From positions 3,552,001-3,616,000 of the forward strand of contig OY843751.1 of the NCBI GenBank assembly GCA_963693055.1: a DNA stretch of 64,000 bases. Direction: 5' to 3'. The translations under genes were made by a program, and so were the position numbers. The notes under the pieces are model-generated. The model was not told the DNA's origin. It ran no database searches and was given only the letters and a program-made list of their open reading frames with translations. Below are positions 24,162 through 50,901 of this stretch, in pieces. Position 1 is the stretch's first letter. Each line of letters starts with the position of its first letter. The DNA comes from a bacterium. GTDB lineage: Bacteria; Zhuqueibacterota; Zhuqueibacteria; Residuimicrobiales; Krinioviventaceae.

Positions 24162-24170
24162 GAAAAATCC

Positions 24171-25115: not shown

Positions 25116-25213
25116 TACGAATACCAGCCTTTCAAATTATATAAACTTGCCTGCCTGTATAACAAGCCAGGCAATGCATTTTATCTATATACCGCCACAA
25201 GCGGTGAATCTAA

Positions 25214-26038: not shown

Positions 26039-26059
26039 TTTTACTCAACTATTTCATTA

Positions 26060-27466
26060 TTATTGATGATTATAAACTTCCCATCCCAGGTATTTACTGA
26101 ACGCTTCGTTTAAAACACCTGCGGTATGAGACAAATTCATGGCAACATGGTGTTCAAATCCATTTTCACAGATATGTCTCAAAAGCCCCTCCAGATTGGG
26201 AATATTTGCAACAGCTCGGCTGCCAAAGGTATCTAACGGATCATTGGTAAAATCGCCATGGCCTACATACGCATTAATTAATCCTATTGAATCATCGGTT
26301 GACAAGCGGGCATACGTCAATGGACCTGCAGGTGTACGCCCTTCCAGTGCACCATAGGTATTTTCTTCACCTAAAGTAGAGCCCAAAATGGGTGCAGTAC
26401 TGATTGCTATATCCGGTATAAAGGATTTTGCCCAGTTACCGCAATGGAACATGACGAGTTTATCAGGCTCGCCACCGTAATTATTGTTCCAATCAGCGAG
26501 TGCGCTGGGGCGTCCCGATGCCAACTGTAATGCATACATGGATAATGCACCCATTACATCTACTTCACAAGCACTGGGGATGAGTCTTTCACTCATCATG
26601 CTCATGCTGGTACAAACATTTATACCGAAATTCATCTGTAATGAATCCCAACATTGGATTGCGGTTGCGTTTAAACCATTTTCCTCTACGAAACGGTTGA
26701 TCACTGCATCCAGTTTGGCCATGGACATTAATTTTTCTTCCGGTACTTTATCATAGTTAGCAAACGCTTTAATGGTTTCCAAACTCTTTTTCGCTGCAGG
26801 ATCGCTGTTACTCAGGCGATCAAAATCACCCCAAATCTGGGACAAGTCAACGGTTACCACATTTATTCCATATTCCTGCAACAGTTTCTCACTATAACGT
26901 ACTGTATTAAAAGCACCAGGACGTGCGCCAATGGCACCAATACGTGCATTCTTTAAACCGTTTACAACACGGCAAACCGATACAAAATCAACGAGATCTT
27001 TATGGAACGCTTCATCCTTCAGACTCATCACATGTTTGCTGGTCAAAGAGTATGGAATACCTGCCTGACGCAGATTATTACATACAGAGATTTTACCGCA
27101 TAATCCATCACGACGGAGTGCAGGGTTCATTTTATTCAAATCATCCGGGCTTGCCTGGATTAAAACAGGCACATTTAATCCGGAAAGCTTAATCGTATCC
27201 AAAACTCCACGTTCATCGCCAAAGTTGGGTAAAACAACCAAAACACCCTCTATTTCGTCACGATGTTTTTTAAACAGTTCAGCACAAACTTTGGCATCCT
27301 GATATGCTTCAACACCGCCAAGTTTTGTTACAGATTCATCCAGCATGATGGGAACAATGTCTAATTTTTTAAAAAGTGCAAAGATATCTGCACGTGCTTC
27401 TGATACCAGATGGTCTGGAAAAAAGGCACGGTTACCAACAATAACACCCAACGTTGTTTTGCTCAT
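26060..27466 (-). CDS. L-fucose/L-arabinose isomerase-family protein; candidate D-apiose isomerase
   Basis: NFGDE, RDGLCGKISV, AIQCW, SACEVD, FHCGN, GFEHHVAM; lies between the ABC transporter and transketolase. Confidence 0.7.
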   Translation of the reverse strand: MSKTTLGVIVGNRAFFPDHLVSEARADIFALFKKLDIVPIMLDESVTKLGGVEAYQDAKVCAELFKKHRDEIEGVLVVLPNFGDERGVLDTIKLSGLNVPVLIQASPDDLNKMNPALRRDGLCGKISVCNNLRQAGIPYSLTSKHVMSLKDEAFHKDLVDFVSVCRVVNGLKNARIGAIGARPGAFNTVRYSEKLLQEYGINVVTVDLSQIWGDFDRLSNSDPAAKKSLETIKAFANYDKVPEEKLMSMAKLDAVINRFVEENGLNATAIQCWDSLQMNFGINVCTSMSMMSERLIPSACEVDVMGALSMYALQLASGRPSALADWNNNYGGEPDKLVMFHCGNWAKSFIPDIAISTAPILGSTLGEENTYGALEGRTPAGPLTYARLSTDDSIGLINAYVGHGDFTNDPLDTFGSRAVANIPNLEGLLRHICENGFEHHVAMNLSHTAGVLNEAFSKYLGWEVYNHQ

Positions 27467-27480
27467 TATTTTCTCCTCAA

Positions 27481-28461
27481 CTATATATTATTCTTAATCT
27501 CTCTACTCATTTTGTCAATTATGACTGCCAACAGAATTACCAGCCCTTTAATGACCTGCTGCCAAAATGGTGAAACGTTTAATAAAACCAGTCCGTTATT
27601 CAAAACACCAATGATCAGCGCTCCCTGCACGGTTCCAATAATAGAACCGCGTCCACCGGACAATGACGTCCCGCCTATAACAACAGCGGCAATAGAGTCC
27701 AGCTCAAAGCCCATACCCGCGTTTGGCTGCGCTGAATCAAGCCTTGAGGTAACCAACAATCCGCCTACAGCCGACATGGTGCCGGCAAGGGTATACACAA
27801 TCATTTTAACACGATCTACATTTAGACCTGACAGGCCGGATGCTTTTTCATTGCTTCCAACCGCGTAAATATAACGTCCTAATCTCTTTTTACGGGTAAG
27901 GACCACCATCAGCACAACAATCAAAGCTGTAATCCACACCGGTACAGGGATGCCCAAAAACCATCCGGTTCCCATAAAAGCAAAAGAATTTCCCAAACCG
28001 GTAATGGGAAATCCACCAGTCCATAACATGGTCAATCCGCGGGCCATGGTTAACATGGCAAGGGTGGCTACAAAGGGTGGAACTCGGAAACGGGTAATAG
28101 CCAATCCATTGACCCAGCCCAGGGCTGAGCCGGTCACCAGACCGGCAATAACTGCTCCCAGAAATGTGAATCCGATAAACAGGTTTAAACCCGGAATTTC
28201 AATACCATTTTTCAGTAATCCGGCTGCTACCGCACCACTAATAGCCAGTATGGACCCTACAGAAAGATCAATGCCTCCCGTTAAAATAACCAGGGTCATT
28301 CCCATGGATAAACAGACATTGACCGATATTTGTCGCATCACATTCCAGGAATTATCAACGGTTAAAAACTTTTCCGTAAAAATGGATAAAAAAACAATCA
28401 TGATCAGCAATGCAATCAATGACTGGAACCGTAATAATGTATTTTTCAAATTCTTGTTCAT
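27481..28461 (-). CDS. Monosaccharide ABC transporter permease (RbsC-like)
   Basis: GMTLVILTGGIDLSVGS, VPPFVATL, GRYIYAVGSNE, ELDSIAAVVIGGTSLSGGRG. Confidence 0.93.
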   Translation of the reverse strand: MNKNLKNTLLRFQSLIALLIMIVFLSIFTEKFLTVDNSWNVMRQISVNVCLSMGMTLVILTGGIDLSVGSILAISGAVAAGLLKNGIEIPGLNLFIGFTFLGAVIAGLVTGSALGWVNGLAITRFRVPPFVATLAMLTMARGLTMLWTGGFPITGLGNSFAFMGTGWFLGIPVPVWITALIVVLMVVLTRKKRLGRYIYAVGSNEKASGLSGLNVDRVKMIVYTLAGTMSAVGGLLVTSRLDSAQPNAGMGFELDSIAAVVIGGTSLSGGRGSIIGTVQGALIIGVLNNGLVLLNVSPFWQQVIKGLVILLAVIIDKMSREIKNNI

Positions 28462-30011
28462 GCAATTTCCTGTTTCTGTGTTTCAATACTCTTGGGGATT
28501 GCCGCACATAGTAAATTTTCTTCTGTCGCCTGAGATGGGGTAAATTCACCGTTTAATTGTCCCTCAGACATGACTAAAATCCGGTCCGAGATAGCAAGTA
28601 CTTCGGGCAATTCAGAAGAGACCATAATGATGCCCAATCCTTTTCCCGCCAACTCGCTGATAAGTTTATAAATTTCATTTTTTGCGCCAACATCTACCCC
28701 GCGTGTGGGCTCGTCCAGGAATAATATACGGGGATGCGTAGCCAGCCATTTAGCAATAACAACTTTTTGCTGATTCCCCCCGCTCAATTTTTCAACCGCC
28801 TGTGTTGTTCCGGGCGTTTTAATCTTTAATTGTTGTATATAATCTTGTGCAAGGTTCTGTTCAGCCTGACAGCTTAAAAATCCACATTTTTCAATCTGTT
28901 GTATATCGGCAAGGCTGATATTCTCTGCAACACTCATCTCTATAATTAATCCCGCGGATTTGCGGTCTTCATGCACATAGCCAATTCCGGCATCTATGGC
29001 CTGTTGCGGATTTTCAATAGAGATTTTACTGCCATCAATATAAATAGAGCCGGTGTGCGCATTGCCATACACACCGAAAATACAATCAAACAATTCGGTA
29101 CGTCCCGCACCCATCAAGCCGAAAATACCCAGCACCTCACCTTTTTTCACATGAAAGGATATATCTTTTAATAAATAATCATTCTCTCTGGCAGGATGTT
29201 TCAGACTCAGGTTTTCAATTTGAAGAACCTCAGCACCAATACTCACTATATCCTTTACGAAAAAATCATCCATATCTCTGCCAACCATGGACCGGATGAT
29301 ATCTTCCTGAGTAAATTCTGAAGAGGGTCCGGAGGTTATATATTGTCCATCTCGAAAGATGGTTATTGCATCAGCAATTTTATCTAGTTCGTCCAGCTTG
29401 TGAGTAATATAAACAATAGCAACACCATCAGCTTTTAGGGATTTAATGAGACCAAACAAAATATCCACTTCATGTTCACTGATTGCCGAAGTTGGCTCAT
29501 CCATGATAATAATTCTGGCATTCAAAGAAAGTGACTTGGCAATTTCAACAATCTGCTGCTGACCTACACGCAGATTTTCGACAGCAGAGTGGGAATGAAT
29601 ATCTGAATTGAGTTTTTGCAACAGCGCCCGCGTATCATCAGCCATCTTTCGATAATCGATAAAACCCAGTCGGGTTAAAGGTTCGCGTCCCAGAAAAATG
29701 TTTTCAGCAACCGTCAGGTGAGGTATCAGATTCAATTCCTGATGGATGATGGCTATACCCAGATCCTGAGCATGCCGGGGGCCGGTAAAACGGACTGGCT
29801 CGCCATCTAGCAGCAGCGTACCCTCGTATTCCGTATATACACCGGACAAAATTTTCATCAAAGTGGATTTACCCGCTCCGTTCTCTCCCAGAATGGCATT
29901 AACCTGTCCCGCGTAAATATCCAGATCAACATTCTGCAATGCCAGAACACCGGGAAATCGTTTACTCACTGACCGTGCAGCGAGTACGGATTTTAATACT
30001 GCATTACTCAT
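28458..30011 (-). CDS. Monosaccharide ABC transporter ATP-binding protein (RbsA-like, two ABC domains)
   Basis: GENGAGKST, MDEPT, LSGGNQQK, LDEPTRGVDVGAK. Confidence 0.95.
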   Translation of the reverse strand: MSNAVLKSVLAARSVSKRFPGVLALQNVDLDIYAGQVNAILGENGAGKSTLMKILSGVYTEYEGTLLLDGEPVRFTGPRHAQDLGIAIIHQELNLIPHLTVAENIFLGREPLTRLGFIDYRKMADDTRALLQKLNSDIHSHSAVENLRVGQQQIVEIAKSLSLNARIIIMDEPTSAISEHEVDILFGLIKSLKADGVAIVYITHKLDELDKIADAITIFRDGQYITSGPSSEFTQEDIIRSMVGRDMDDFFVKDIVSIGAEVLQIENLSLKHPARENDYLLKDISFHVKKGEVLGIFGLMGAGRTELFDCIFGVYGNAHTGSIYIDGSKISIENPQQAIDAGIGYVHEDRKSAGLIIEMSVAENISLADIQQIEKCGFLSCQAEQNLAQDYIQQLKIKTPGTTQAVEKLSGGNQQKVVIAKWLATHPRILFLDEPTRGVDVGAKNEIYKLISELAGKGLGIIMVSSELPEVLAISDRILVMSEGQLNGEFTPSQATEENLLCAAIPKSIETQKQEIA

Positions 30012-30639
30012 GAGAACCTGAAATAATTTTTATCGGGATAATACCCAGGGGATCAATTTCGGGATCATCCTGACTCACTTCGGCAGCACCGATAAATGAA
30101 ACGGAGTGTCCCGTTTGCAACTGGCTTTTTGCAGGATTTACCACCAACTCTCTCACCCGTTTATTGATCTCTGAAGAAATGGCATTAAACTCCATGCTGT
30201 TGGGGAAATCACTCACATCCACCAATCCGGAAGCATCCCGGACAGCGTTGCCAAACAGATCCAGAGCAATCAGCAAGACATCCGGGTTTCCGTCTTTTGT
30301 TGTATCCAAATAAAATCCACTCGGTTCAATCTTGACCACAGTACCCTCACCTTTGATCAAATAAGCGTGTTTGGATGCAATACCCAGTGTTTTAGCATAT
30401 TTCGATACAGCTTTATCCATATCATTTTGAAATAATGGAAGCAGAACATTTGCATCCACAGCTTGGCCCAATACAGACGGAAGTTCTTTATCCCAAAAAT
30501 TCTGTACATATATTTGGGCATCAAAAACATCGGATTTAGCATTTTCTTTCATCTTGTCCAGTTTCTTGATATAAACAGACTGGGACAATATGACCAAACC
30601 CAACACCAGAAAGATAAAATATTTAATTTTTCTCTTCAT
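30004..30639 (-). CDS. DUF2291-family membrane-anchored periplasmic protein
   Basis: N-terminal hydrophobic anchor; [25 protein letters not shown]; position between SBP and ATPase typical of DUF2291. Confidence 0.7.
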
Positions 30640-31585
30640 TTTTTCCATATGCAGTATATTTTTCAATATTTTCCTGATTCACCAGTTCAACAGCAATAGG
30701 CAACTTTTGCGGGAAATCGGTTTTGCCATTCAAATACTGGTCTGCCATTTCAGCAGCCGTACGGGCCATTACTTTGGGAAACTGCATGCCGGTTGCCATG
30801 ATTTTACCGTCACGGATAGAATCTACAACATCTTTGGCACCGTCAAACCCAAACACCATAACATTGTCCGCTTTACCGGCAGATGCCAGTGCCTGGTATG
30901 CACCCATAGCCATTGCATCGTTTCCACAAAATACCGCGTCAATATCGGGATTTGCCTGCAATATAGATTCCAATACTTCCATAGCCTTATTACGGTCAAA
31001 ATCCGCACTCTGTTGCGCAACCATTTTTATATCAGTGTAATTATCAACAACACTGTGGAAACCGCGTGAACGGTTCCAGGTATTATTGTCACCAACCAGG
31101 CCCAACAACTCTACATATTTACCTTTTCCGTCTAATTTCTTGACAAAATACTGTCCCAGGGCAACACAACCGGAATAATTATCAGAAAGAATTTGTGATA
31201 CAGCGTCGGTATTGGAATTGATCTCGCGGTCCATGCAGAATGTAGGTACCCCCGCTTCTTTGGCGCGCTTGACATTGGATATTGAACCCTCTGCATCAGT
31301 AGGATTAAACAAAATTGCCTGATAACCGGCGGCTATAATGTTTTCAAAATGGTCCGTTTCTTTTGCATTATCATTTTGAGAATCAAAAATGGTTACCTTG
31401 TAACCCAACTCACGAGCTCTCTCGCCAGCAGTTTCACCCAGTACAACAAACCAGGGATTGTTCAGTGTAGAGATAACAACTGCAATCTGTTTTTCTTTCT
31501 CCGCATTTTGACCGGCATCTTTGCTGCATGCGGTGAACAAGAAAACAGATATCACACTCAAAAGAATGATAATTTTTCTAGACAT
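30623..31585 (-). CDS. Sugar ABC substrate-binding lipoprotein (RbsB-like); probable D-apiose-binding
   Basis: Lipobox FTAC; [36 protein letters not shown]. Confidence 0.88.
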
Positions 31586-31601
31586 TTTTTACTCCTGTTA
31601 T

Positions 31602-32363
31602 TTAGGCAATAATAAACTCTATACCATGCCTTGCAAATTCCTGACGATCCTGGTCGGTAATACCATCATCAGTAATTAGATAATTGATAAGCGACAATGC
31701 ACCCAAGCTGGCAAGTGATTGAACTCCAAGTTTTGAGGAATCTGCAACCAGATAGACTGTATTGGCCGCTTCGATCATGGCTTTTTTCACCGGCAAATCA
31801 CTCAGACTGGGGTATGTTAATCCGGCACGAAGGGTAATGCCTGCTGTTGCTAAAAACAATTTATCCACATGTACATTTTGAAAAAATTCCGCTGCCTTTT
31901 GCCCGGTAAGCGACAATGTAGGCGCCTTAAATTCACCGGCAGTAAGCAAAACCGTTATACCAGGCTGGCCACCAATGATGAGTGGAATATTGACTGCATT
32001 TGTCACCACAGTCAGATTTTTATGATCAACAAGACATTTGGCAACCTCTGTAGTTGTAGTGCCAGAATCCAGGATGATCGTATCTCCATCATCAATAAAC
32101 TCGGACGCTTTTCTGCCAATGCGCGCTTTTTTATCCATATTTTCGTTATGCTGAAAAGAAAACGATTGTACCTGGCTGGGCAGACTTTTTAAAAAAGCAC
32201 CGCCATGTTCGCGCATAATCAATCCATCATCTTCCAACCTTGCCAGATCCTGCCGAATGGTTACCTCTGAAATGCGAAAAATCCTGCTCAAATCAGAAAC
32301 CTTGGCGTTACCATCTTCTTTAATCAGATCAAGTATTCGTTGTCGTCGTTGTGAAGCAAGCAT
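31602..32363 (-). CDS. DeoR/GlpR-family transcriptional regulator of the apiose module
   Basis: SEVTIRQDLARLE..HGGA; IILDSGTTT; VADSSK. Confidence 0.93.
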   Translation of the reverse strand: MLASQRRQRILDLIKEDGNAKVSDLSRIFRISEVTIRQDLARLEDDGLIMREHGGAFLKSLPSQVQSFSFQHNENMDKKARIGRKASEFIDDGDTIILDSGTTTTEVAKCLVDHKNLTVVTNAVNIPLIIGGQPGITVLLTAGEFKAPTLSLTGQKAAEFFQNVHVDKLFLATAGITLRAGLTYPSLSDLPVKKAMIEAANTVYLVADSSKLGVQSLASLGALSLINYLITDDGITDQDRQEFARHGIEFIIA

Positions 32364-36443: not shown

Positions 36444-38723
36444 TCAGTTATTAAGCAATTCCTGCAATATCATGGTGCTGTTCATATCTTTTATAGTCAG
36501 GTTTTTCTTGTTTCCGGCAGCATTCCATGCATTTTGAATATATTTCAGTTCTTTTTTATTCAAAGTAGTATCAATTTCACGTTTGGCATTGACCATATTG
36601 GTCAATACTACCCGTTTCGGTGCCAGTGATGCCAATAGTTGCGGTGTATCATAATATGCCAGCACATTATGAATGAACAAAAACGGACTTGCAGCACCAT
36701 AAGGTTTTAGTGCCAGCTCTTTAAAGGAACTCACCATATGGTCCAGCACTATATTTTCAATATTTTCATTCAATACTGCCGCATGCAGGGCCAGCATGGC
36801 ACCGTCTCCATAGCCATAAATATCCAATGCTTTCCCTTGCATATCCACACGAGATTCCAGATATGCTATTCCGGTCATTAAATCGTGTAACCGCATACCA
36901 AACAATGGTTTCTGCATTTCGTATGCAAAGGCGTTAAAATCTGCTTCATTGTCCTCTCGGCCGTAAATGATCTGATATCCCTTGAATACCGGGCCATCGT
37001 CACGGTTCTTTTGCTCAGGATGCGGATCAGCAAATTCATTATAACCCCGCAAATCCAGTGCAAAGACACGACAGCCGGATTTTGCAAGTTGTTTTATAGT
37101 CTCTATACCATTAGCTTTGCCACGTTCATGTACGTACACAACCGTGCGACCGGTTTCCCGATCAAAAGAATCCGGGGTCAGCATCATGCCAGGCATCCAC
37201 AGACCCCGTTCGGAGTGAAGTAAAATTCTTTCGAGTTTAAAGTCGTCACCACTAGATGTATTAACAATACGAGACTCTACATATGATGTCATGGAATCTA
37301 GCTTTAAAACGGTTTTAATTTTATCTGATATAGATTTTCGCAATGTATCGATATCCGATCTTGATTTTATTTCAGTAAAAGATGGGGAAATATCCTGAAC
37401 ATATTTTTCATTCAAGGTCAGTAACGATTCACTTCCCAATTCTTCAACAGAACCGGATTGGGTTACATTAATATCTTTAGCACCTCTAACCTCTACCGGT
37501 ATTTCCACATTATTTTCTTCCAGTTTATAAAATTTCTGGCTCAACCAGTGATACATGGTCTCACGGGACTCTCGGTTATAATTATGCGGTGCACCAATAA
37601 GATGATATGCAACAGTACGCTCTCTATCATCACCATACACACGGGTAAATACACCATTGATCTCGTTATACATATCTACCGAGGTATTTAAAATATCTTT
37701 ATCTCCGGTTGCATTGATAAGCAGCATATCCTTAACATTCTTCATCATGAGCAAATCAGACAACTCGAAGCCATATTTAATACGTCCGGGAATATTTTGT
37801 TCACCATCCAGATTCCCTTTGCCGGAATGCGGTACTGTTCCATAATGCCAATTGGCACATACGGGAATAACAGCGGTAATTCGGGGATCGGCGCCTGCAA
37901 CATATTGTGTTTGAGAGCCACCTCCCGATGCGCCGGTCACGGCAATCCGGGTTGTGTCTGCATTGTCAAAACCGCACAACACATCAATTCCACGGATACA
38001 GTCCCAAATAAAGTAATTCGTCAAATTATGTCCGGTGAGATGGAGCTGCAGGTTCAATGCAATATGCTGATGTGTTGCCTGCCCCATATCAGATTCCATT
38101 TCAGAATCGGGATTAAATAAAATCTTGCGTTCACCCTGTCCAAAGGGATCAAAGGCAAGAACAATATAGCCCAAACGTGCCAGCATGGAACAGCGCTGCT
38201 GCATATGGATAGCGCCTTTACCATCAATTTTGCCTTTACCTCCCCACCAGTGTCCGGTTGTACACAACATAAGCGGATAAGGAGCGGCATGGGTTTTTGG
38301 CACATACAGATTGGCTGTCACCAGGTAACCCGGTAAACTCTCGTATGTAATTCGTGACAAGTCATAATCCCCACAATCCACAGTGCCATAATATTTAACA
38401 TTTAATGGTGATTTTTCGGGAAAAGGTCCCACACACTCTGTATAGATATTACGCATCTTTTCACGGTATCGATCAAATTCGGAAGCATCCTGAACCGCAT
38501 CAAGCTCGATTCTTCGTTTGGCAAAGGAGGCATCCGCAATTTCTCCAAAATAATCCAGTAACTGCTGGTTTGGATCAGCTACATCCATACCGGGATGAAT
38601 AACTGTTATATCTTTTACCTGCAAGCCTGACAGGTCAACTGCATACCCCATAGAAACAGTAAATAAAAGGACAAAAAATAGTATGGGTACATTTAGCCAG
38701 AATTTATGTAAATTCTTTTCCAC
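36444..38723 (-). CDS. Secreted tandem alpha/beta-hydrolase (acetylxylan-esterase-like) carbohydrate esterase
   Basis: GTG start; YESLPGYLVTANLYVP, GH, FDPFGQGER, nucleophile elbow TGASGGG, HNY; second domain DLRG..GMRLHD..GYGDGA lacks the Ser. Confidence 0.7.
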   Translation of the reverse strand: MEKNLHKFWLNVPILFFVLLFTVSMGYAVDLSGLQVKDITVIHPGMDVADPNQQLLDYFGEIADASFAKRRIELDAVQDASEFDRYREKMRNIYTECVGPFPEKSPLNVKYYGTVDCGDYDLSRITYESLPGYLVTANLYVPKTHAAPYPLMLCTTGHWWGGKGKIDGKGAIHMQQRCSMLARLGYIVLAFDPFGQGERKILFNPDSEMESDMGQATHQHIALNLQLHLTGHNLTNYFIWDCIRGIDVLCGFDNADTTRIAVTGASGGGSQTQYVAGADPRITAVIPVCANWHYGTVPHSGKGNLDGEQNIPGRIKYGFELSDLLMMKNVKDMLLINATGDKDILNTSVDMYNEINGVFTRVYGDDRERTVAYHLIGAPHNYNRESRETMYHWLSQKFYKLEENNVEIPVEVRGAKDINVTQSGSVEELGSESLLTLNEKYVQDISPSFTEIKSRSDIDTLRKSISDKIKTVLKLDSMTSYVESRIVNTSSGDDFKLERILLHSERGLWMPGMMLTPDSFDRETGRTVVYVHERGKANGIETIKQLAKSGCRVFALDLRGYNEFADPHPEQKNRDDGPVFKGYQIIYGREDNEADFNAFAYEMQKPLFGMRLHDLMTGIAYLESRVDMQGKALDIYGYGDGAMLALHAAVLNENIENIVLDHMVSSFKELALKPYGAASPFLFIHNVLAYYDTPQLLASLAPKRVVLTNMVNAKREIDTTLNKKELKYIQNAWNAAGNKKNLTIKDMNSTMILQELLNN

Positions 38724-38737
38724 AATTCACCTCTAAT

Positions 38738-40291
38738 TTAATGCTTCAATTTCTTCCAACCTTTGATAGTCAGATTGTCATCAAGCTTTGATGATTTGAA
38801 CAAGAAACTGCTAAAATAACCAACGGCCATCAAAACCAGATGACTGTAAACACCCAGCATATACTTGTGCTGTGAAAAATTAAATTTGCCCAAATCCAAT
38901 AAAATCCTGGGTTCGTCTCCAATGGGGAACTTTGTTGAAGTCAACACGGCCCAACCGGTAAAGAGTATGCAGGCAATAATTCCAATATTTGCTCCCTGAC
39001 GGTTTGCCCGTTTGCTGAACAAACCCAGAATAAACAAACCTGCAATCCCTCCGGAAAAAATAGCATACAAGGTAAAAACAATACCCAAAACACCGGTATC
39101 ACCCGCTTTGACATACAGCGTAGCGACAATCATAGCTGCCAAACCAGACAATAATACCACAGTTCTCCCTATGACCATTTGCTGTTTTTCCGTACAATTG
39201 GGATTAAACCGTTTATAATAATCCTCAACACCTATGGCAGCAAGACAGTTGAGATCAGAATCCAAACTCGATATAGCTGCGGCTACCAACGCGGCAAGGA
39301 TCAGCCCGATAACACCCACAGGAAGTTCTGACATGATAAAAATCGGGAAAACCGCATCAGGACGAATATCCGCTGGTAAAACACCACTATTGATCTGATA
39401 AAAAGAATACAAGGCCGTACCAATAAACATAAAAATAGCCCAAACAGGTACGCTAAGGAACACACCCATCAAAGCAGCTTTAATTGCACCTTTTTCGGAA
39501 CGTGCAGTGAGATAACGTTGGACTATGGTTTGATCTGTTCCATATTTCTGAATCGCGTAAAATACACCATTCAGTACCATTACAACAAAAGTCAGTTTTT
39601 TAAAATCCCAATCAAAGGGGCCAAAACCCATTTTGTGGTTATCCATAGCAATTCTTATAACCTCAGCCGGGCCTCCCTCGGGTATAAAAAGTAGAAAAGC
39701 CATACAAAGCAACCCGCCACCGATGAGCATAAATCCCTGAAAAACATCCAACCAGATAACCGCTTCTATACCGCCGAGCAACGTAAGCACAACCACTGAT
39801 ACACCCAGCACCCAGATGATCATATAGGTACTGACGCCCATAATGTTGGAAAGCGCAAGGGCAAGCAAAAAGAAAACCGTACCCATTTTAGAAAAATGTG
39901 CCAGTATAAATGCCAGCGAGCTGTATAAACGCGCCATAAATCCGAATCTTTTTTCAAAATATTCATAAGCGCTTATACCGATAACCTGACGATACAAGGG
40001 TACAATAAATTTCACCAATGCAACCAATACAATGGGTACCATTAATCCCTGGACGAGACGTATCCAGTTTGACGCATAGCCTTCTCCGGGATATGCCAGA
40101 AAAGTCACACTACTGATCAAAGTAGCCAGTATTGACATACCCACAGCCCATGAAGGAATCGATCCGCTGGCCGCAAAATACTTTTTGGTATTATTTTGAC
40201 CACGCGAGAAAAACGCCCCAAGGCCCAATGCAATCAAGAGTGATACAAAAATGATGATATAGTCAATAATATGCAAAGCAGGTTGGTCCAT
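38738..40291 (-). CDS. Sodium:solute symporter (SSS; sialic-acid/sugar-acid type)
   Basis: ATLISSVTFLAYPG, YEYFEKRF, GGIEAVIWLD, GTDQTIVQRYL, AAISSLDSDLN; many TM helices. Confidence 0.9.
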   Translation of the reverse strand: MDQPALHIIDYIIIFVSLLIALGLGAFFSRGQNNTKKYFAASGSIPSWAVGMSILATLISSVTFLAYPGEGYASNWIRLVQGLMVPIVLVALVKFIVPLYRQVIGISAYEYFEKRFGFMARLYSSLAFILAHFSKMGTVFFLLALALSNIMGVSTYMIIWVLGVSVVVLTLLGGIEAVIWLDVFQGFMLIGGGLLCMAFLLFIPEGGPAEVIRIAMDNHKMGFGPFDWDFKKLTFVVMVLNGVFYAIQKYGTDQTIVQRYLTARSEKGAIKAALMGVFLSVPVWAIFMFIGTALYSFYQINSGVLPADIRPDAVFPIFIMSELPVGVIGLILAALVAAAISSLDSDLNCLAAIGVEDYYKRFNPNCTEKQQMVIGRTVVLLSGLAAMIVATLYVKAGDTGVLGIVFTLYAIFSGGIAGLFILGLFSKRANRQGANIGIIACILFTGWAVLTSTKFPIGDEPRILLDLGKFNFSQHKYMLGVYSHLVLMAVGYFSSFLFKSSKLDDNLTIKGWKKLKH

Positions 40292-40321
40292 TAACAGCTC
40301 CTATAAAAGTAAAAACGGATA

Positions 40322-41467
40322 CTAGATAAAATCAGGCCATTTATAACTACCCGGCTTGACGGTTAAATTTATTTCCGGGTGGCAGGCAACGTTCATTCGA
40401 ACTACACCGGGCCCAAGCTCTTGAATTGGAATAAATCTTTGCCATCCCATATGTCTTACAATTGCAGATGCAGTTGATCCGCCTTCAATAAACAATTCAT
40501 TTACTTTAAACTGGACAAGAATTTTAGCTACAATTACAGTAACAAGCTCTAATAACCTTTCAGTCAAGTTTTCAATAGGCGGAAGACTCTGACTGACTGC
40601 AATTACCAATTTTTCACATCCGTATATTTCTTTTAATATATTGTTTACCCATTCATCAATAGATTTTTCTTTATTCTTTTCAAGTTCTAAAAACGATGCG
40701 GGAATCTCTCCCAGAATGAATTGTTTCTGCCCAAACATCTTTATCGAGTTTACTCTATTCGGTGAATTACTACCGCAAACACAAAGAACATTTTTTGAAA
40801 AATCTGGTAAAGATTCAAGCTCAATTTCCTGACGCTCAAATTGAGAACCAAGCAAAGCATCAAAATAATCAGAACTACCAGCAGGCAGTGTATTCGCTGG
40901 ATTGATATTTGTCCAGAATTTCATTTCCATGCTATTATTGCATTCACCAATAACAATTCCAGCCTCAGGGACTCCCTGATCTACAGAACGATATTCTATC
41001 AGCATTTCGTCGGATTCATTGAATCGTTTTAAAACATCAGATACTGTAACGGGAAAATCAATATCATGTGCAAATTCAGTTTCATCTAGAGGTACACCAT
41101 GTATATAATAATGCCCACCATCAATAACCCGACCGGCAGATGGATTTGCGGGCACAAGTAAAGCTAATGGTATATGTAATTGATTCATCATTTCTTTTAT
41201 CTCTGGCAACAAATGTCCCCGAAGAACGGAATCAATCTTTTTATAAATCCACTCCGGAGAAAGATTTTTCAATATTGTTGCTATTTCAGCAATCTTTTCA
41301 ACTGCACTTTTTTCAGTAGATGACCGGGTATTAGAATCGATTATAAGCAAATCTGACTCGCAACTGGAAATGGGCTTTGTACATATTTCAACACGTTTAC
41401 CATAACGAAGCGCGATTCCTCCCATTTCAGCACTACCCGAAAAATCATCAGCTACTACTGCTATCAT
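40322..41467 (-). CDS. Four-carbon acid-sugar kinase (DUF1537; DtnK/DenK family)
   Basis: ADDFSG, YKKIDSVLRGH, PANPSAGR, GS, EGGSTA, VKPGS. Confidence 0.85.
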   Translation of the reverse strand: MIAVVADDFSGSAEMGGIALRYGKRVEICTKPISSCESDLLIIDSNTRSSTEKSAVEKIAEIATILKNLSPEWIYKKIDSVLRGHLLPEIKEMMNQLHIPLALLVPANPSAGRVIDGGHYYIHGVPLDETEFAHDIDFPVTVSDVLKRFNESDEMLIEYRSVDQGVPEAGIVIGECNNSMEMKFWTNINPANTLPAGSSDYFDALLGSQFERQEIELESLPDFSKNVLCVCGSNSPNRVNSIKMFGQKQFILGEIPASFLELEKNKEKSIDEWVNNILKEIYGCEKLVIAVSQSLPPIENLTERLLELVTVIVAKILVQFKVNELFIEGGSTASAIVRHMGWQRFIPIQELGPGVVRMNVACHPEINLTVKPGSYKWPDFI

Positions 41468-41520
41468 TTAAAACTCCTTGTCAACATCGCCCTGCTGAAT
41501 TCTTTTACCACTTTCATATT

Positions 41521-42561
41521 CTATTTTCTGCTCCTTGCCATTGTTATAGCATATTCAATAGCATAAATCAAAGCCATGGGACTTGCAATCCCTTGCCCTG
41601 CAATTTCAAATGCTGTTCCGTGATCCACAGAAGTTCTAATGATGGGTAAACCCAATGTAATATTCACGCCACTAACATTTTGCATTTGCTGCTTTTTATT
41701 GTCCCACTTGAAACCTATCAGTTTGAACGGTATATGTCCCTGGTCATGATACATAGCCACACATCCGTCATAATATCCACCAACTGCCTTGGGGAACAAG
41801 GTATCTGGTGGAACAGGGCCTTCCACGTCCATCCCCTCGCCAACCGCTTGTTCAATGGCTGGACGTATATGCTTTATCTCTTCATCTCCAAAAAGCCCAC
41901 CATCTCCCGAATGCGGATTCAATCCTGCCACACCTATCCGGGGATTAGATACGCCAAATTGCCTGCAGGCCGCTTCCATAAGCTTGATAACATCCACAAT
42001 ACGATCTTTGGTTATAATTTCACAAGCCTGATGTAAAGAAACATGGGTCGTGACATGTATAACCCGAAAATTACCATGTGCAAGCAGCATGGCAACACTG
42101 GGTGTGTTGGTTAATTCAGCATAAATCTCAGTATGACCGGAATAATGATGTCCGGCAAGATTCATAGATTCCTTGTTCAGGGGGCTGGTTACTGTAGCGT
42201 CTATCTCTCCTACAAGAGCAAGTTCAATGACTTTTTTAACAGATTGATACGCGGCATTGCCACACATAGCATTGATTTCACCATATTGCAATTGCTCCAT
42301 ATTTACCAGATCCAGATCCATTACATCAATGGTGCCGCATTCAAATCTCGCATCACTTACTCGAGTACTTTTGTGGATATATAAATCCTTTCCACTAAAA
42401 GTCATTGCTTGTTGTAAAACATTTGCATCACCTATTACTATAGGCTTACACTTTTCATAAATATCAGGAAAGGCCAATGCCTTTATAATAATCTCTGGCC
42501 CTATTCCGGCCGGATCTCCCATTGATATTCCTAATATGGGTTTTGATTCAACATTTGACAT
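41521..42561 (-). CDS. pdxA2: PdxA-family oxidative decarboxylase; probable D-threonate-4-phosphate dehydrogenase (PdxA2)
   Basis: MGDPAGIGPE, GHTE, HVTTH, LNPHSG, MYHDQGHIP, RTSVDHGTAF; adjacent to a DUF1537 kinase. Confidence 0.8.
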   Translation of the reverse strand: MSNVESKPILGISMGDPAGIGPEIIIKALAFPDIYEKCKPIVIGDANVLQQAMTFSGKDLYIHKSTRVSDARFECGTIDVMDLDLVNMEQLQYGEINAMCGNAAYQSVKKVIELALVGEIDATVTSPLNKESMNLAGHHYSGHTEIYAELTNTPSVAMLLAHGNFRVIHVTTHVSLHQACEIITKDRIVDVIKLMEAACRQFGVSNPRIGVAGLNPHSGDGGLFGDEEIKHIRPAIEQAVGEGMDVEGPVPPDTLFPKAVGGYYDGCVAMYHDQGHIPFKLIGFKWDNKKQQMQNVSGVNITLGLPIIRTSVDHGTAFEIAGQGIASPMALIYAIEYAITMARSRK

Positions 42562-42574
42562 TTGTACTTTTTCT

Positions 42575-43501
42575 CTAATTCATCAATTCTTTTAATGCGA
42601 TTTCGATTTGTTGCGCCTCTAATAACGATAATGCTAAAATCGGTGGCAATACAACTTTTTCACACAATCCGAGTGAATGCATGCATACTTTGAGTGCTGC
42701 AAGAGACTGGCTTAGAATGCGATCTTTTTGGTATACAAGAGATATATCATTGGTCGCCTTTTGCAGCGTTTCTGCCTGTTCTCTCTCTCCTTTTATTGCG
42801 GCATTGTACAAATCCCGATACATACCAGGAACGATATTTCCGGTACTGGGTACAATCCCATCCGCACCATTTAAAAGCGCATATGTAGATTGTGCGGCCC
42901 AGCCTATTAGAAAACTAAAATCACTATTGTCTTTCCACAGGGTTATACATTTATCCAGCCTTGCTGGGTCTCGTTCAGAGTCTTTTAATCCTGAAATATT
43001 GGGATGTTTACTCAACGTTTCTAAAACATCCAGAGGAATGGACATCCCCGTAGTTCCGGGGATATTGTATACAATCAACGGGACAGGACTGGCATCTGCA
43101 AGCTTCTCAAAATACTGCAACATATGATTTGGGGTCAATGGATAATATTCCGGTAAATGTGCTACTACCGCATCAACACCCAAGTCTGCAAATTGCCGGG
43201 CCATTTCAACACTGATCTGAAAACAAGTGCTGTCAATACCTGCATATGTCAACTCTTTTTTGTTCGTCACACTTACCATTTCCGAAACCAGCTTAACTTT
43301 TTGATCCAAAGGTATGGATGCCGCTTCTCCGGTTGTTCCCAATACAAAGGGACTGGTTTTGGCAGCAACCAGATGCTCGGTAATTTTGGCAACGGCTCTT
43401 GTATCAACTTTATTCGAGTTAGTAAAAGGTGAAACCATGGGTACAACCACACCGCTGTATTTTTTTCGACTAGTCAATATACATTCCTGTTTATAATGCA
43501 T
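42575..43501 (-). CDS. DHDPS/NAL-family class I aldolase; candidate Dha aldolase
   Basis: GTTGE, IVYNIP, Schiff-base GLKDS; probable TTG start at 43477. Confidence 0.85.
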   Translation of the reverse strand: MHYKQECILTSRKKYSGVVVPMVSPFTNSNKVDTRAVAKITEHLVAAKTSPFVLGTTGEAASIPLDQKVKLVSEMVSVTNKKELTYAGIDSTCFQISVEMARQFADLGVDAVVAHLPEYYPLTPNHMLQYFEKLADASPVPLIVYNIPGTTGMSIPLDVLETLSKHPNISGLKDSERDPARLDKCITLWKDNSDFSFLIGWAAQSTYALLNGADGIVPSTGNIVPGMYRDLYNAAIKGEREQAETLQKATNDISLVYQKDRILSQSLAALKVCMHSLGLCEKVVLPPILALSLLEAQQIEIALKELMN

Positions 43502-44636
43502 TCATATAAATTTCAGTGGCAATTTTTTCATCTATTGTGAGTGGATTATTTTTCAATAATCGGGTAACGGTTAATGCAGATTTAACCATGCCGGGTATAT
43601 CATCCATTGTAATGCCAAATTCTGACATTTTGAATGGTATACCAATATTTTTCATCAGGGATTTAAGAGATTCCACTCCGGCCATAGCAGTATCTAAATC
43701 AGTATCAGCAAGATCTGCTCCCAATGCCAATGCAATCTGCGCAAATCGCTCCGGTGCGGATGGTATGCTTGCTTGCATTACATATGGCATCATAACCGCT
43801 ATGGACAATCCATGGGGTACATGAAATTCTCCGCCCAGGGGATACGCCAACGCGTGAACAGCCGCAGTGTTAACAGGGCCCAGGCACATACCGCCATACA
43901 TACTCCCCAAAGCCAATCTTGAACGGGCTTCTTTATCTTGTCCATTCTTCACCGCGGTTTCAAGATTTTCCGAAATATAGCGAATACCTTCAAGCGCATA
44001 CATATCTACCATGGGATGTGCGTTAATATTGATATACGACTCGAGGCAATGCGATAGAGCATCAATGCCTGTAAATGCAGTAACATTGGGTGGAACTGAT
44101 AAAGCCAACAACGGATCAATATAGACCCGATCAGGTACCAGCCAGGGGCTAATGATCCCTTTTTTCAGATTGTCATGTTCATCCAGCAATATAGAATTGG
44201 GAGACACTTCACTGCCCGTACCTGCGGTAGTTGGTAAACAGGCCAGGAATATTTCCCTACTCTGCAAATTACCAATGCCAATAGTATCATATATATCCTG
44301 ATTTTTATTACAGAGTGCTGCTACTATCTTGGCCAGATCCATTACACTGCCCCCACCTATAGCGGCTACACTATCGATACTATGACTTGATGCAATTTCC
44401 CGTATACGTTCTGCATCGCGAACTATGGGTTCATTAGCAAGATCATCAACAACAATTACGGAATCACAAGATTTTTGTAAAATTTTGATTTGTTCATCAA
44501 TAACAGGAACCAATGGTGCAATGGTTACAATTAATAAACTTTTAAACTTTAAGGATAAAATATCATCTACAAACTGATCAATGCAGTTTTCTCCGAAAAC
44601 AACATGACGTGGAAATGTAAAACTTGTATTTTTCAT
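43491..44636 (-). CDS. Iron-containing (family III) alcohol dehydrogenase / aldehyde reductase
   Basis: GGGSVMD, PTTAGTGSE, DALSHCLES, HALAY..HVPHG. Confidence 0.92.
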   Translation of the reverse strand: MKNTSFTFPRHVVFGENCIDQFVDDILSLKFKSLLIVTIAPLVPVIDEQIKILQKSCDSVIVVDDLANEPIVRDAERIREIASSHSIDSVAAIGGGSVMDLAKIVAALCNKNQDIYDTIGIGNLQSREIFLACLPTTAGTGSEVSPNSILLDEHDNLKKGIISPWLVPDRVYIDPLLALSVPPNVTAFTGIDALSHCLESYININAHPMVDMYALEGIRYISENLETAVKNGQDKEARSRLALGSMYGGMCLGPVNTAAVHALAYPLGGEFHVPHGLSIAVMMPYVMQASIPSAPERFAQIALALGADLADTDLDTAMAGVESLKSLMKNIGIPFKMSEFGITMDDIPGMVKSALTVTRLLKNNPLTIDEKIATEIYMNAL

Positions 44637-44662
44637 AATTTATAATATATTTCTCCCAAATA

Positions 44663-46549
44663 TTAGTATCTTGTTCTGAAATTCTTTAAATAATATACAA
44701 CAGGTGCAACAGGATCGTCAGGTCGTTTTTCATCAAATCCCGGTACAAATTGATCACCGCTTTTGTATTCGGTCACATCATTGGTTAAGCGATAATCGCC
44801 TGTACGAAAGATAATCCGTTCGGGAACAGTCCCTTTGGCAGAAAAAGCAGCGTTTGTTACCAACTTTTCGTCATTTAATGATAAATTAAACTGTTCTTTT
44901 TTTGCGTCCAGATCGATCATGACAGTATACCATTTCCCGGATTCAATTTCAGTAACAGATGTTGCATTGTTGTTCCCTTTTTTCACCAAAAGCGAACCGG
45001 TTGTGTCAAATCGGGCCTGTACCAAACGTTCTCCTTTGGCAGACACAACTTCAACATCAAGCACCTGGTGCTGACATTCTGCATATAAATCAAACGAGAT
45101 TTGCTGTTTTTCAGATTTATTAAATACCCGTACAGCCTTGGCATAGTCATAGGGATCCACATCTTTGAGCATCAAACATTTTTCAGATGCATAGGGTGCT
45201 ACTACAACCTCTACCGGGCACCATTTGGGGCTGTAAACATTCCAGTCTGTAACAACACCACCGGTTTCCATTTCATTAAAATTATCATTAATGGGACCTG
45301 TAACATCTCCGCGCACAGGCACCGGTATGCGCGAAATCCACATATCCTCTTTACTCACTGAATAAACAACCCAAAGATCATTGCCCGGGGGATTACCATT
45401 CCCTTCAATAATTCCTCGTACATATTGAGGTCCGGGTCTTTTTTCACGTCCCCAAAACCGTTTGAGGGGTACTTCACTGTGGACATTTAATAAATTATCG
45501 AAATGAATCCCATCATCTCCGGTAGCAATACTTAGTGGATGTCTGGCAAGGCCGCCAGTTGGATTATAAACCAATGCATACTGCCCGTTATCCATACGCT
45601 GTGCCCAAATCTTAGCACCGGCATAACTCAGAGTATTACATTGTACGGGTTCTGACCAGCTTTCTCCTTGATCAAAGCTCAAAGTAGTCCAGCGAGCTTT
45701 AAAGAAACCAACCAGTACACTGTCAGGACGGGTATAGTAACAAAAAGCCTGTCCCGGACTTTTCTCTCCATCGTCCATGATCCAGGGAACACGATAAAAA
45801 TCATCCTTGTTTGCTGCAGTGCGATCTTCTTCCCACCATTGTATGCGTTTGACCTTGTCATTTAAAAAAGCATCACAGGCAGATACAAAACCTTTATCAT
45901 TAGATTCTGTATACATGGGGTAAGTCATGTCTTTTTTACGCCCAAAGTTGGCTTTGATACTGTAAATGGGACCAAAGGTATTGTCCTTATAAACTTCACG
46001 CACAACTCGTCCAACACCGTCACCTTTATTGCCGCCATAAAAACCAAAAGCCAACAGCCTGCCATCAGGTGCTACATAAAAAGCCATACGTTGGTGCATG
46101 TGAATGAGATCTACCCAGTCGCCTTCTCCCGGTAAAAAATAGATGGGAAATATAACCTGGGGCTTGCTCCAGTTTTTGCCATCTTTAGACATTGCAACAA
46201 GTGTTACGCCCGGTGGAATGTGTTCACCAGTGGGATTTGACAGATAAATACAATAAAACATGCCATTCCAATATGTCAGCATAGGTGCATGGTTATAGGT
46301 CCACCCCATATCATCAGCCAGCTCGGGATGGGTGCGGTTGGCCCGCAATATCTGATAATTTTGTACACCCACAGCGGGACGGAATTGTCCGTCATGGTAA
46401 CCTGAATCATAATCGCTATTTGACGTGGTTACCGGCCCAACATAGCGTACCGGTTCAGATTTATCTCCAGGTTTAGCATAAATTTGGATAATACTTGACA
46501 ATACAATCAGCAGAGTTGATATAATGTGTTCAATTTTCATTCGTTCCAT
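44663..46549 (-). CDS. GH143-like Dha (3-deoxy-D-lyxo-2-heptulosaric acid) hydrolase, stand-alone, secreted
   Basis: Signal peptide; YHDGQFRPAVGV..RANRTHPE..GWTYNHAPML, GEHIPPG, MHQRMAFY, GVGRVVRE, QWWEED, AKIWAQR, GPQYVRGI, YSVSKEDMW recalled as the BT1020 N-terminal domain pattern; RG-II context. Confidence 0.72.
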   Translation of the reverse strand: MERMKIEHIISTLLIVLSSIIQIYAKPGDKSEPVRYVGPVTTSNSDYDSGYHDGQFRPAVGVQNYQILRANRTHPELADDMGWTYNHAPMLTYWNGMFYCIYLSNPTGEHIPPGVTLVAMSKDGKNWSKPQVIFPIYFLPGEGDWVDLIHMHQRMAFYVAPDGRLLAFGFYGGNKGDGVGRVVREVYKDNTFGPIYSIKANFGRKKDMTYPMYTESNDKGFVSACDAFLNDKVKRIQWWEEDRTAANKDDFYRVPWIMDDGEKSPGQAFCYYTRPDSVLVGFFKARWTTLSFDQGESWSEPVQCNTLSYAGAKIWAQRMDNGQYALVYNPTGGLARHPLSIATGDDGIHFDNLLNVHSEVPLKRFWGREKRPGPQYVRGIIEGNGNPPGNDLWVVYSVSKEDMWISRIPVPVRGDVTGPINDNFNEMETGGVVTDWNVYSPKWCPVEVVVAPYASEKCLMLKDVDPYDYAKAVRVFNKSEKQQISFDLYAECQHQVLDVEVVSAKGERLVQARFDTTGSLLVKKGNNNATSVTEIESGKWYTVMIDLDAKKEQFNLSLNDEKLVTNAAFSAKGTVPERIIFRTGDYRLTNDVTEYKSGDQFVPGFDEKRPDDPVAPVVYYLKNFRTRY

Positions 46550-49464: not shown

Positions 49465-50901
49465 CTAGGCCTCCACGGTTTTGTTAAGATCAGTACTTTT
49501 AACACCAAACAGACCATATTTCTGTTCCAATGCGCTAAACACAATATAAAAGATTACGGTAATGAACCAGCCGGGAAGTGCCAGAAAATAGATTTCAAGG
49601 CTGTATTTAAAATACAGATAGAGACACACAGCCAGTGATCCACCCCATGCAAGCGCGGATGGAATACTGAACATTTTATTCATCAATTCAGCATAGTTGC
49701 TTTTCAATCCAATTTTTGGGAACACCCAGAAATCGATAAAAATAAATGCGCCAACTGGCATAAAAATGAGGCCATAAAGCGCAACAACTTCGGTTAAACG
49801 GTTTACAACCGCCGGAAACATGGCAATAATTGTAGTTGCAGTACCGGCAACCAGGGTCACTTTCCAACGTTTCCAGTTCGGTGTAGCCACCTGGAACGCC
49901 AAACCTGCACGGTACAGGGTAGGATTCGCAGTAGTCCATCCTGCAACCACAACGGTTACCGCACCAACAACACCTGCGCCTAACAATGCAATGGGACCGG
50001 GAGCAATGCTGTTATTGGGATTAATAGCAAGCGCAGCAGCACACAATATACCGGATGCTACCCAGGCCACGTAATGCCCTAAAAACATGCCAAAAGCGGA
50101 TGCAAAACCATAGGTCCATTTTTTTGCATAACGGAACAATGTCATGTCTGACATACCAATATGCTGATGAAGATTACACAACCATGAGAAAAAAATTACA
50201 TGCCAGATGGTGAATTTTGATTGGCCGGCAACTACATTACCAGTCCAGATTTTTTCATTGGCAACAGACCAAAAATCACCCAGTGAGGTCACACCCAGTT
50301 TGGGCAATACCGCAAAAGCAGATGCAACAAAGACCAGAAACATCCAAGGTGCGCTGACTTTGGCAAACTTGGCCAGTTTTTCAAAACCCAAAATGGCAAG
50401 TAAAGAAACCACTGTTCCCACTGCAAATACAACTACTACCCAGGTAACACCAGTGGGCATGGTATCTGTCAGTTTGGGCATGGGCATATTAAAAGGAAGT
50501 CCCACCGCGGTTGCCGAAACAGTAACCATAGCCCCGGCTAGAAGGCATAAAATTAATGCGTACAAAATCCCATAAATAAAAGTTAAATAGGGACCACAGA
50601 TTTTTCGGATCTGCCAGTAAACGGTCAAACGGGTCCTGACTGCGATTGGAGCGCAGTACAATGCCCAACTCAAAACCGCCAGAATATTACCAATGATTAG
50701 ACCGATAAACAGGTCAGGTGCGGTTACACCATGTACAACAAACAGGGGTCCTAACACAAATTCTGTTCCGGCAATATGCTCGCCAGAAAACATTGCAATA
50801 AAATTCGATGATCCCTGCAATTTGTCTTTTGACACGGGCTCACGGTCAAATTCATACAAACCGTCAAGCCGCTTGATCAATCCACCTTTTTCTTTACTCA
50901 A
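49465..50901 (-). CDS. NCS1/cytosine-permease-like secondary transporter
   Basis: TTG start after AGGAG; about 12 TM segments; GEHIAGTEF, DMTLFRYAK, GWTTANPTLYRAGLA. Confidence 0.72.
   Translation of the reverse strand: MSKEKGGLIKRLDGLYEFDREPVSKDKLQGSSNFIAMFSGEHIAGTEFVLGPLFVVHGVTAPDLFIGLIIGNILAVLSWALYCAPIAVRTRLTVYWQIRKICGPYLTFIYGILYALILCLLAGAMVTVSATAVGLPFNMPMPKLTDTMPTGVTWVVVVFAVGTVVSLLAILGFEKLAKFAKVSAPWMFLVFVASAFAVLPKLGVTSLGDFWSVANEKIWTGNVVAGQSKFTIWHVIFFSWLCNLHQHIGMSDMTLFRYAKKWTYGFASAFGMFLGHYVAWVASGILCAAALAINPNNSIAPGPIALLGAGVVGAVTVVVAGWTTANPTLYRAGLAFQVATPNWKRWKVTLVAGTATTIIAMFPAVVNRLTEVVALYGLIFMPVGAFIFIDFWVFPKIGLKSNYAELMNKMFSIPSALAWGGSLAVCLYLYFKYSLEIYFLALPGWFITVIFYIVFSALEQKYGLFGVKSTDLNKTVEA

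Follow-up and report, generated by a model that had tools for sequence, protein, structure and literature searches.

A conserved bacterial gene module as a candidate catabolic pathway for the rare sugar Dha

Introduction

Dha (3-deoxy-D-lyxo-hept-2-ulosaric acid) is a rare seven-carbon diacid of rhamnogalacturonan II (RG-II). A stretch of 64,000 nucleotides from a bacterium of the phylum Zhuqueibacterota (contig OY843751.1 of assembly GCA_963693055.1, positions 3,552,001 to 3,616,000; referred to as the window) contains at positions 38738-46549 six genes for which a sequence-only reading had proposed a complete route of Dha catabolism. A computational follow-up indicates that five of them form a catabolic module that is real, widely distributed, and well conserved, and which is most likely the missing Dha pathway, with a known lower half and a new upper half. 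By this module, Dha would probably be converted into pyruvate and D-threuronate, and the latter via D-threonate and its 4-phosphate into dihydroxyacetone phosphate (DHAP) and CO2. Loci and genomes are given by L and G numbers.

Conserved Unit and Co-Occurrence with GH143

An alignment of 35 aldolases was used to scan the GTDB genomes, and the best 80 of 569 confirmed loci were taken, a sample that favours close relatives and includes near-copies (L028, L093/L095, and L088/L091/L098). Full loci, in which the aldolase gene was flanked by 9 kb or more in each direction, numbered 50. All of these contained genes for a PdxA-family dehydrogenase and a DUF1537 kinase, together with a sodium:solute symporter (SSS) gene in 47 and an iron-containing alcohol dehydrogenase (Fe-ADH) gene in 45; when all 80 loci were counted, including those with incomplete flanks, the numbers were 70 (PdxA), 69 (kinase), 65 (SSS), and 62 (Fe-ADH). 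The usual order is Fe-ADH, aldolase, PdxA, kinase, and SSS. Judged by record titles, such modules span Bacteroidota, Calditrichota, KSB1, Ignavibacteria, Planctomycetota, and Pseudomonadota, and the carriers include cultured Pedobacter puniceum, Dyadobacter psychrophilus, Chitinophaga rupis, Niastella, Pontibacter, and Larkinella. The arrangement is more than chance, since several phyla share the order of the five genes. The core consists of five genes, and GH143 is the commonest glycosidase neighbour yet a variable one outside this core (18/50 full loci, followed by GH78 in 13, GH140 in 11, and GH127 in 4).

The expectation that the module would accompany GH143 across genomes was borne out. 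In a Sphingobacteriales-level sample of 150 genomes, GH143 was present in all 21 carriers of the module aldolase versus 53/150 genomes overall, the carrier count excluding a match in G422 at 209 bits that was assigned to another clade. In a phylum-level sample of 250 genomes, it was present in three of four carriers versus 10/250 overall, and here 16 matches below 240 bits were likewise assigned to another clade and excluded. Among 40 relatives of the window genome, five of the six carriers had GH143 versus 7/40 overall. The centre genome was excluded from these three samples and included in a set of eight genomes from one genus, in which the aldolase and GH143 were both found in the same four. 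For loci without GH143, the gene was located elsewhere in 9 of 13 genomes examined. Related genomes are not independent, and Fisher p-values for the locus-context contrasts overstate. The relation is one-way, in that most GH143 genomes lack the module. A family-level sample around G041 comprised 7 genomes, with the mainstream gut Bacteroides lying outside it.

Gene Families and Proposed Route

The six open reading frames (ORFs) are all open at the coordinates first reported (Table 1), and neighbouring genes are separated by 13-53 bp, except that Fe-ADH and the aldolase overlap by 11 bp. Family calls were made by Pfam, NCBIfam, and PDB searches, which agree with the families originally named for the six co-oriented genes. 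The idea of a self-contained six-gene block did not hold, as the genes are embedded in a longer run and the conserved unit is the five without GH143.

Table 1. The six genes of the window and their family assignments.
Product	Coordinates	Strand	Length	Matches
GH143-like hydrolase, stand-alone	44663..46549	-	628 aa	PF24067, PF22585, 5MQR
Iron-containing alcohol dehydrogenase (Fe-ADH)	43491..44636	-	381 aa	PF00465/PF25137
DHDPS/NAL-family Schiff-base aldolase	42575..43501	-	308 aa from ATG	PF00701
PdxA2-like NAD-dependent oxidative decarboxylase	41521..42561	-	346 aa	PF04166
DUF1537 four-carbon acid-sugar kinase	40322..41467	-	381 aa	PF07005 + PF17042
Sodium:solute symporter (SSS)	38738..40291	-	517 aa	PF00474, TIGR00813
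DHDPS, dihydrodipicolinate synthase; NAL, N-acetylneuraminate lyase.

The hydrolase was confirmed as GH143-like by its match to the N-terminal (Dha-hydrolase) domain of BT1020 (residues 38-577 of 5MQR, E 6e-120) and by a PF24067 score of 274 bits against a cut-off of 27, with PF22585 also matched. Its architecture is that of the BT1020 N-terminal beta-propeller plus a CBM-like domain, and its hydrophobic N-terminus resembles, by eye, a signal peptide. Y376, R154, R336, R364, and R378 are 100% conserved in 35 sequences and E240/E241 97% conserved; Y376 (within GPQY.RG) and E240/E241 align with BT1020, and a Tyr-Glu nucleophilic pair has been reported for GH143 (PMC6811678). The protein is predicted to release Dha, the source being either side chain D of RG-II or a sulfated glycan that contains Dha.

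For import, the symporter exceeds the TIGR00813 cut-off (232 vs 184 bits), and its nearest solved structure is 5NV9 (E 1e-78), the sialic acid symporter SiaT of P. mirabilis (PMC8461474), in line with the initial SSS assignment. It shares 54-70% identity with homologues outside its own genus. The kinship with SiaT fits the uptake of a 2-keto-3-deoxy acid, and the protein is predicted to be a Dha importer driven by Na+. In L088:13445-16399 and L091, the symporter is fused to a domain of ~460 aa; a free gene resembling this domain comes after the symporter in several other loci, with a weak glucuronyl-esterase match in L074. An esterase-like gene (36444-38723) comes after the symporter in the window.

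The aldolase contains the motifs GTTGE (G55-E59), Y145, and K173, conserved in 90 sequences, and both K173 and Y145 are invariant in 90/90 clade sequences, which corroborates the intact Schiff-base lysine noted at the outset. Translation probably starts at a TTG at 43477, giving 300 aa, because the database copy has 300 aa and the homologues begin there. The protein scores below the DapA equivalog cut-off (TIGR00674, 146 vs 206 bits) and both NanA cut-offs (115 vs 281 and 91 vs 382 bits). It falls in a distinct clade with the signature KDSE...R, GWAA, and YQ, which comprised 37 rows with an SH-aLRT of 100 in a quick tree (56/109 sequences); 2960 proteins match it at E <=1e-40, a set broader than its own clade. 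Among the 120 matches listed for homologues of the Tannerella member, Bacteroides was represented only by sp. 214, 224, and 51 and by metagenome-assembled genomes (MAGs). An AlphaFold model (pLDDT 95; TM 0.84-0.90 to NAL/DHDPS/YagE/4XKY at 22-30% identity) supports only the NAL/DHDPS barrel fold and is silent on the substrate. R181 was considered as a dedicated ligand of the C7 carboxylate and rejected, since an Arg occupies the aligned position in DHDPS and HOGA1 too. The protein is predicted to be a Dha aldolase, which would cleave Dha between C3 and C4 through a Schiff base at K173 to yield pyruvate and D-threuronate.

By Fischer-projection reasoning of our own, this cleavage leaves a D-threo four-carbon uronate, whose reduction gives D-threonate. 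The Fe-ADH is predicted to be the D-threuronate (tartaric semialdehyde) reductase performing this step, and the open-chain aldehyde of D-threuronate fits such an enzyme. The Fe-ADH scores under every named NCBIfam cut-off, and its GGGS (G94-S97), D192, H196, H261, and H275 are 100% conserved in 60 sequences, as the cofactor motif and the Asp/His/His/His metal ligands, respectively.

A profile check of the kinase gave PF07005 (111 bits) and PF17042 (34 bits), the SBD_N and NBD_C domains, both above cut-off, so that its DUF1537 identity stands. Conserved in 74 sequences are D7-D8 (100%), K.DS.LRG, and GG.T. The best PDB match is 4XFM (E 6e-19), which we take to be DtnK. The enzyme is predicted to be a D-threonate kinase forming D-threonate 4-phosphate, its threo/erythro preference not being readable from sequence.

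For the PdxA-family protein, the nearest PDB entries are 4JQP/2HI1/6E85 (E 4e-90 to 6e-84, versus 1e-55 or weaker for other PdxA entries), and 6E85 is a D-threonate 4-phosphate dehydrogenase; these PdxA2-type neighbours, along with the adjacent kinase in 50/50 full loci, bear out its proposed PdxA2 type. H173/H217/H272 are 100% conserved in 75 sequences. It lies outside the NF002891 equivalog (336 vs 583 bits), although its context suggests that it works like PdxA2. As the predicted D-threonate-4-phosphate dehydrogenase, it would oxidise C3 of the substrate and decarboxylate it to DHAP and CO2. The kinase and PdxA2 steps follow a known bacterial route, and import, cleavage, and reduction are new assignments; we infer the substrates of all steps.

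Could dapA, adh, and a vitamin B6 pdxA have assembled by accident in a polysaccharide locus? The PdxA passes TIGR00557 (353 vs 290 bits) and is the sole PdxA in a genome that also has PdxJ. Such an accident is nevertheless highly improbable: it is contradicted by the linkage of five genes in conserved order across phyla, and the genome also has PdxS (PdxJ and PdxS at C1:6298594-6299268 and C1:15246-15863). In addition, the aldolase fails the DapA cut-off, and another DHDPS-family paralogue, at C1:3405802-3406530, bears DapA-type motifs. Since PdxJ is present without another PdxA, the module PdxA may have a side role in vitamin B6 synthesis (PMC9997740), although PdxS is present too.

Dha or Kdo as Substrate

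A number of observations weigh against the Dha reading. With regard to distribution, GH143 is adjacent in only the 18 full loci mentioned above, and it was not found in seven module-bearing genomes (L061, L043, L079, L080, G232, G309, and G002), for which MAG incompleteness is possible. Conversely, 32/53 and 7/10 GH143 genomes of the Sphingobacteriales- and phylum-level samples have no module aldolase, and B. thetaiotaomicron, which has GH143, gave no PF07005 (DUF1537) match. Clade aldolases without module genes nearby occur in L060, L069, and L083. Fe-ADH is absent from 5/50 full loci, and a search of five genomes for an Fe-ADH orthologue elsewhere found none in any of them. The best specific model of the kinase is DtnK (NF047819), at 123 bits against a cut-off of 450, and the stereochemical match to D-threonate is a consistency argument and no independent test, since D-erythronate DUF1537 kinases exist and the kinase is below all specific cut-offs. 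[quoted passage not shown]

The last group of points bears on a reading that appears unlikely, in which Kdo or 5-O-methyl-Kdo is the substrate, either by itself or in addition to Dha; the aldolase would then yield pyruvate and D-arabinose, and the other three enzymes would process a five-carbon acid. GH33, taken as the Kdo hydrolase because it adjoins GH78 or is fused to it, as in BT1013 (PMC13501991), would be the glycosidase of this reading; it was counted with its own query, since BNR840 matches mixed GH33 with pectate-lyase-domain proteins. Its co-occurrence with the module in RG-II degraders is as tight as that of GH143, and therefore the Sphingobacteriales-level sample cannot separate Dha from Kdo, which accompany each other in RG-II and in algal coverings. 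GH33 is often directly upstream of Fe-ADH (L063, L088, L091, L097, and L104), D-arabinonate shares the C2/C3 configuration of D-threonate, and, as no other Kdo aldolase is evident in the window genome, its module aldolase may also serve Kdo. On the other hand, this reading requires sugar oxidation by Fe-ADH in a conserved unit without a lactonase, and the DUF1537/PdxA2 substrates named in the accessible literature are four-carbon acids.

The two sugars are better distinguished by a second genomic context. Among 92 module loci, 16 (two from one genome) have a sulfatase in common, in most cases accompanied by a TonB-dependent receptor. GH143 is present in 9 of these 16, and GH33, GH78, GH140, and GH127 in none, compared with GH33 in 12/76 and GH143 in 21/76 of the other loci. 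In five sulfatase-type genomes picked for GH143 in the locus, no GH33 match was found genome-wide in three and no GH140 match in four. Other BNR proteins in these loci could be Kdo hydrolases. The loci (L020, L021, L022, L064, L089, L108, L124, L147, and eight more) are made up of LacI, a protein of the type IX secretion system (T9SS) type, a TonB-dependent receptor, a sulfatase, the module, a GntP permease, GH143, and BNR proteins, with no RG-II enzymes. They may represent a system directed at a sulfated glycan with Dha in it, such as that of green-algal scales. Both Dha and methyl-Kdo have been reported from the scales of prasinophytes and from the theca of Tetraselmis (PMC10762512); on the basis of their Dha content, these coverings are a plausible second substrate.

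GH33 also has aldolase partners of its own. The closest solved sequence relative of the module aldolase is 4XKY of B. thetaiotaomicron (E 5e-38, 30% identity), which was deposited as a dihydrodipicolinate synthase, has an SSS partner, and is presumably BT_2814 of the pair BT_2813/BT_2814 (SSS and NanA-like). Unlike the module aldolase, 4XKY-type proteins form a separate clade linked to GH33/BNR genes and SSS and have a kinase or PdxA in 0/8 loci examined (L116:8010-11444, L118:8554-11987, L142, L148, and L150 among its loci), and they show an acidic GPEE where the module aldolase has GWAA. This arrangement is a candidate module for Kdo or another ulosonate, and it occurs in the same genomes as the Dha candidate (G304, G305, and G309; G041 has a match of that score class). 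A third DHDPS-family clade lies inside RG-II loci (L074:7758-8738, L081, L100:7867-8817, L125:10134-13224, and L145:7160-12530), with CLSSE replacing GTTGE, the Lys kept, an SSS partner, and, in two loci, a fucose-isomerase-like protein of 543-551 aa; it adjoins the module in L074, L100, and L125.

Dha is favoured over Kdo as the best reading, because the sulfatase-type loci keep GH143 but no GH33, because GH33 has separate aldolase and SSS modules, and because cleavage of Dha gives a four-carbon uronate fitting the kinase and PdxA2. Cleavage of Kdo would leave neutral D-arabinose, which neither a kinase of four-carbon acids nor a dehydrogenase that decarboxylates beta-hydroxy acids would use.

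Alternative Fates of D-Threuronate

The substrate and the aldol step could be right and D-threuronate be routed otherwise, for instance by isomerisation to a 3-oxo-tetronate before phosphorylation or by transketolase condensation; this is distinctly unlikely. A split transketolase, ~41% identical to that of the window, replaces Fe-ADH immediately upstream of the aldolase in five loci (L018:4147-5958, L035, L040:8124-9974, L056, and L062), and the three transketolase-variant genomes examined gave no Fe-ADH orthologue at another site. Neither gene is present in the Prevotella loci, L017, and L043. An engineered transketolase has been shown to link 5-ketogluconate and tartaric semialdehyde (PMC12016104), and by analogy the transketolase could condense D-threuronate to D-tagaturonate. 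The kinase, moreover, scores weakly on the OtnK model too (66 bits, below cut-off). However, Fe-ADH and PdxA occur together in 45/50 full loci, which fits reduction followed by oxidation, and no isomerase, class II aldolase-type decarboxylase, or dehydratase was found among the recurring neighbourhood clusters. The kinase and PdxA persist in L035 and L040, which condensation to D-tagaturonate does not explain.

Genomic Setting and Other Acid Sugars

In the window genome (G000), a single contig of 6.5 Mb, the GH143, DUF1537, and PdxA genes are each present once, with the GH142-like genes located away from the stand-alone GH143. The six genes belong to a longer series of co-oriented RG-II and apiose genes (~18457 to 63460), in which GH78, GH140, GH127, and a GH33-like domain are likewise encoded, together with an apiose-type cluster; the setting is therefore an RG-II degradation region. 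The latter cluster (22674-32363, minus strand) contains a fucose-isomerase-like gene, the split transketolase, an FGGY kinase, a sugar ABC transporter, DUF2291, and a DeoR regulator, and resembles the non-oxidative D-apiose pathway. In three genomes, those of the window, L017, and L123, it lies next to the module, and thus the catabolism of rare RG-II sugars clusters. A LacI regulator at C1:3632147-3633139 of G000, outside the window, lies beside a GH142-like gene near the start of the RG-II region and shares 55% identity with the LacI preceding the module in 27/80 loci. A hydrophobic protein of 478 aa (49465-50901, minus strand) has no Pfam/NCBIfam match at the thresholds used; it has a 55% paralogue in the genome and also adjoins GH78/GH127 in L032.

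This setting raises the question of whether the substrate is a different acid sugar from RG-II or algal glycans, such as aceric acid, an apiose oxidation product, or an intracellular 2-keto-3-deoxy acid. GH127, GH140, and apiose-type clusters are nearby in the window, L017, and L123, and the DUF1537 family includes the apionate kinase OiaK. Such a role is very unlikely, as GH127 and GH140 are found in only 4/50 and 11/50 full loci and in 0/16 sulfatase-type loci, neither aceric acid nor apiose belongs to the 2-keto-3-deoxy acids, the module has no recurring dehydratase, and OiaK-like kinases cluster separately with a RuBisCO-like protein (L143 and L144). The separate cluster (L143:6544-11237, L144:6374-11043, and L084) consists of the OiaK-like kinase, an OiaX-like RuBisCO-like protein, a racemase-family protein, and a bile-acid-symporter-family protein, and lies near RG-II loci, at distances within 30-50 kb, in genomes that have GH143 and no module.

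Comparison with Known Systems

The lower half of the proposed Dha route corresponds to the D-threonate/D-erythronate pathway, which was reportedly described by Zhang et al. in 2016 with DtnK/DenK and PdxA2, DHAP being the end product of the PdxA2 step. In both systems, a DUF1537 kinase is located beside a PdxA2-type dehydrogenase and a transporter (PMC10971088, PMC7954711, and PMC9997740), and the known DUF1537 kinases act on four-carbon acids, including D-erythronate (PMC10971088). The module differs in its divergent kinase subfamily below the DtnK cut-off and in its fixed aldolase, Fe-ADH, and SiaT-like symporter partners, and the tetronate would therefore arise inside the cell from a larger sugar.

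With sialic acid catabolism (SiaT and NanA) and the Kdo aldolase, the module shares an ulosonic-acid glycosidase, an SSS symporter, and a pyruvate-releasing Schiff-base aldolase. Unlike NALs, however, its aldolase is only 22-27% identical and below the NanA cut-offs, and neither NanE nor NanK is among the recurring neighbours. The route via GarL and GarR for galactarate/glucarate follows a shared logic of aldol cleavage of a 2-keto-3-deoxy diacid, semialdehyde reduction, and phosphorylation, and differs in that Dha is one carbon longer, each step uses another enzyme family, and an oxidative decarboxylation is added.

The RG-II degradome of B. thetaiotaomicron, with BT1020 (GH143-GH142), shares with the window the GH143 domain and surrounding GH78, GH127, GH140, and GH33-like genes; unlike BT1020, the GH143 of the window is stand-alone, and B. 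thetaiotaomicron differs from the window genome in having no DUF1537 match. The accessible degradome literature describes the release of Dha and not its fate. The word 'aldolase' is absent from the accessible text of an RG-II preprint (bioRxiv 10.64898/2026.03.13.711244), in which a P. vulgatus locus starting from BVU_0214, without carbohydrate-active enzymes (CAZymes) or SusCD, is co-regulated on RG-II. In full-text literature searches, no description of Dha catabolism or of this module was found, in keeping with the initial reading, which knew of none; subscription journals, MetaCyc, and supplements lie outside that scope and may hold a prior mention.

Conclusions

RG-II degradation has been mapped to the released monosaccharides, and in the literature searched the fate of Dha is undescribed; the module offers a candidate enzyme for each step. 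Taken together, we lean with modest confidence towards a first Dha catabolic pathway in which a Dha symporter, a Dha aldolase, and a D-threuronate reductase feed DtnK/PdxA2, common to RG-II degraders and to aquatic sulfatase-GH143 bacteria attacking green-algal scales or thecae, with the transketolase variant as a second use of D-threuronate. If true, this would account for a supply of D-threonate to the DUF1537/PdxA2 pathway in nature and correct thousands of 'dapA/pdxA/adh' annotations. The module would also be a marker for Dha use and cross-feeding, since most GH143 carriers lack it, and would point to an unstudied locus for the degradation of algal scales. Moreover, the aldolase could serve for the enzymatic synthesis of Dha.

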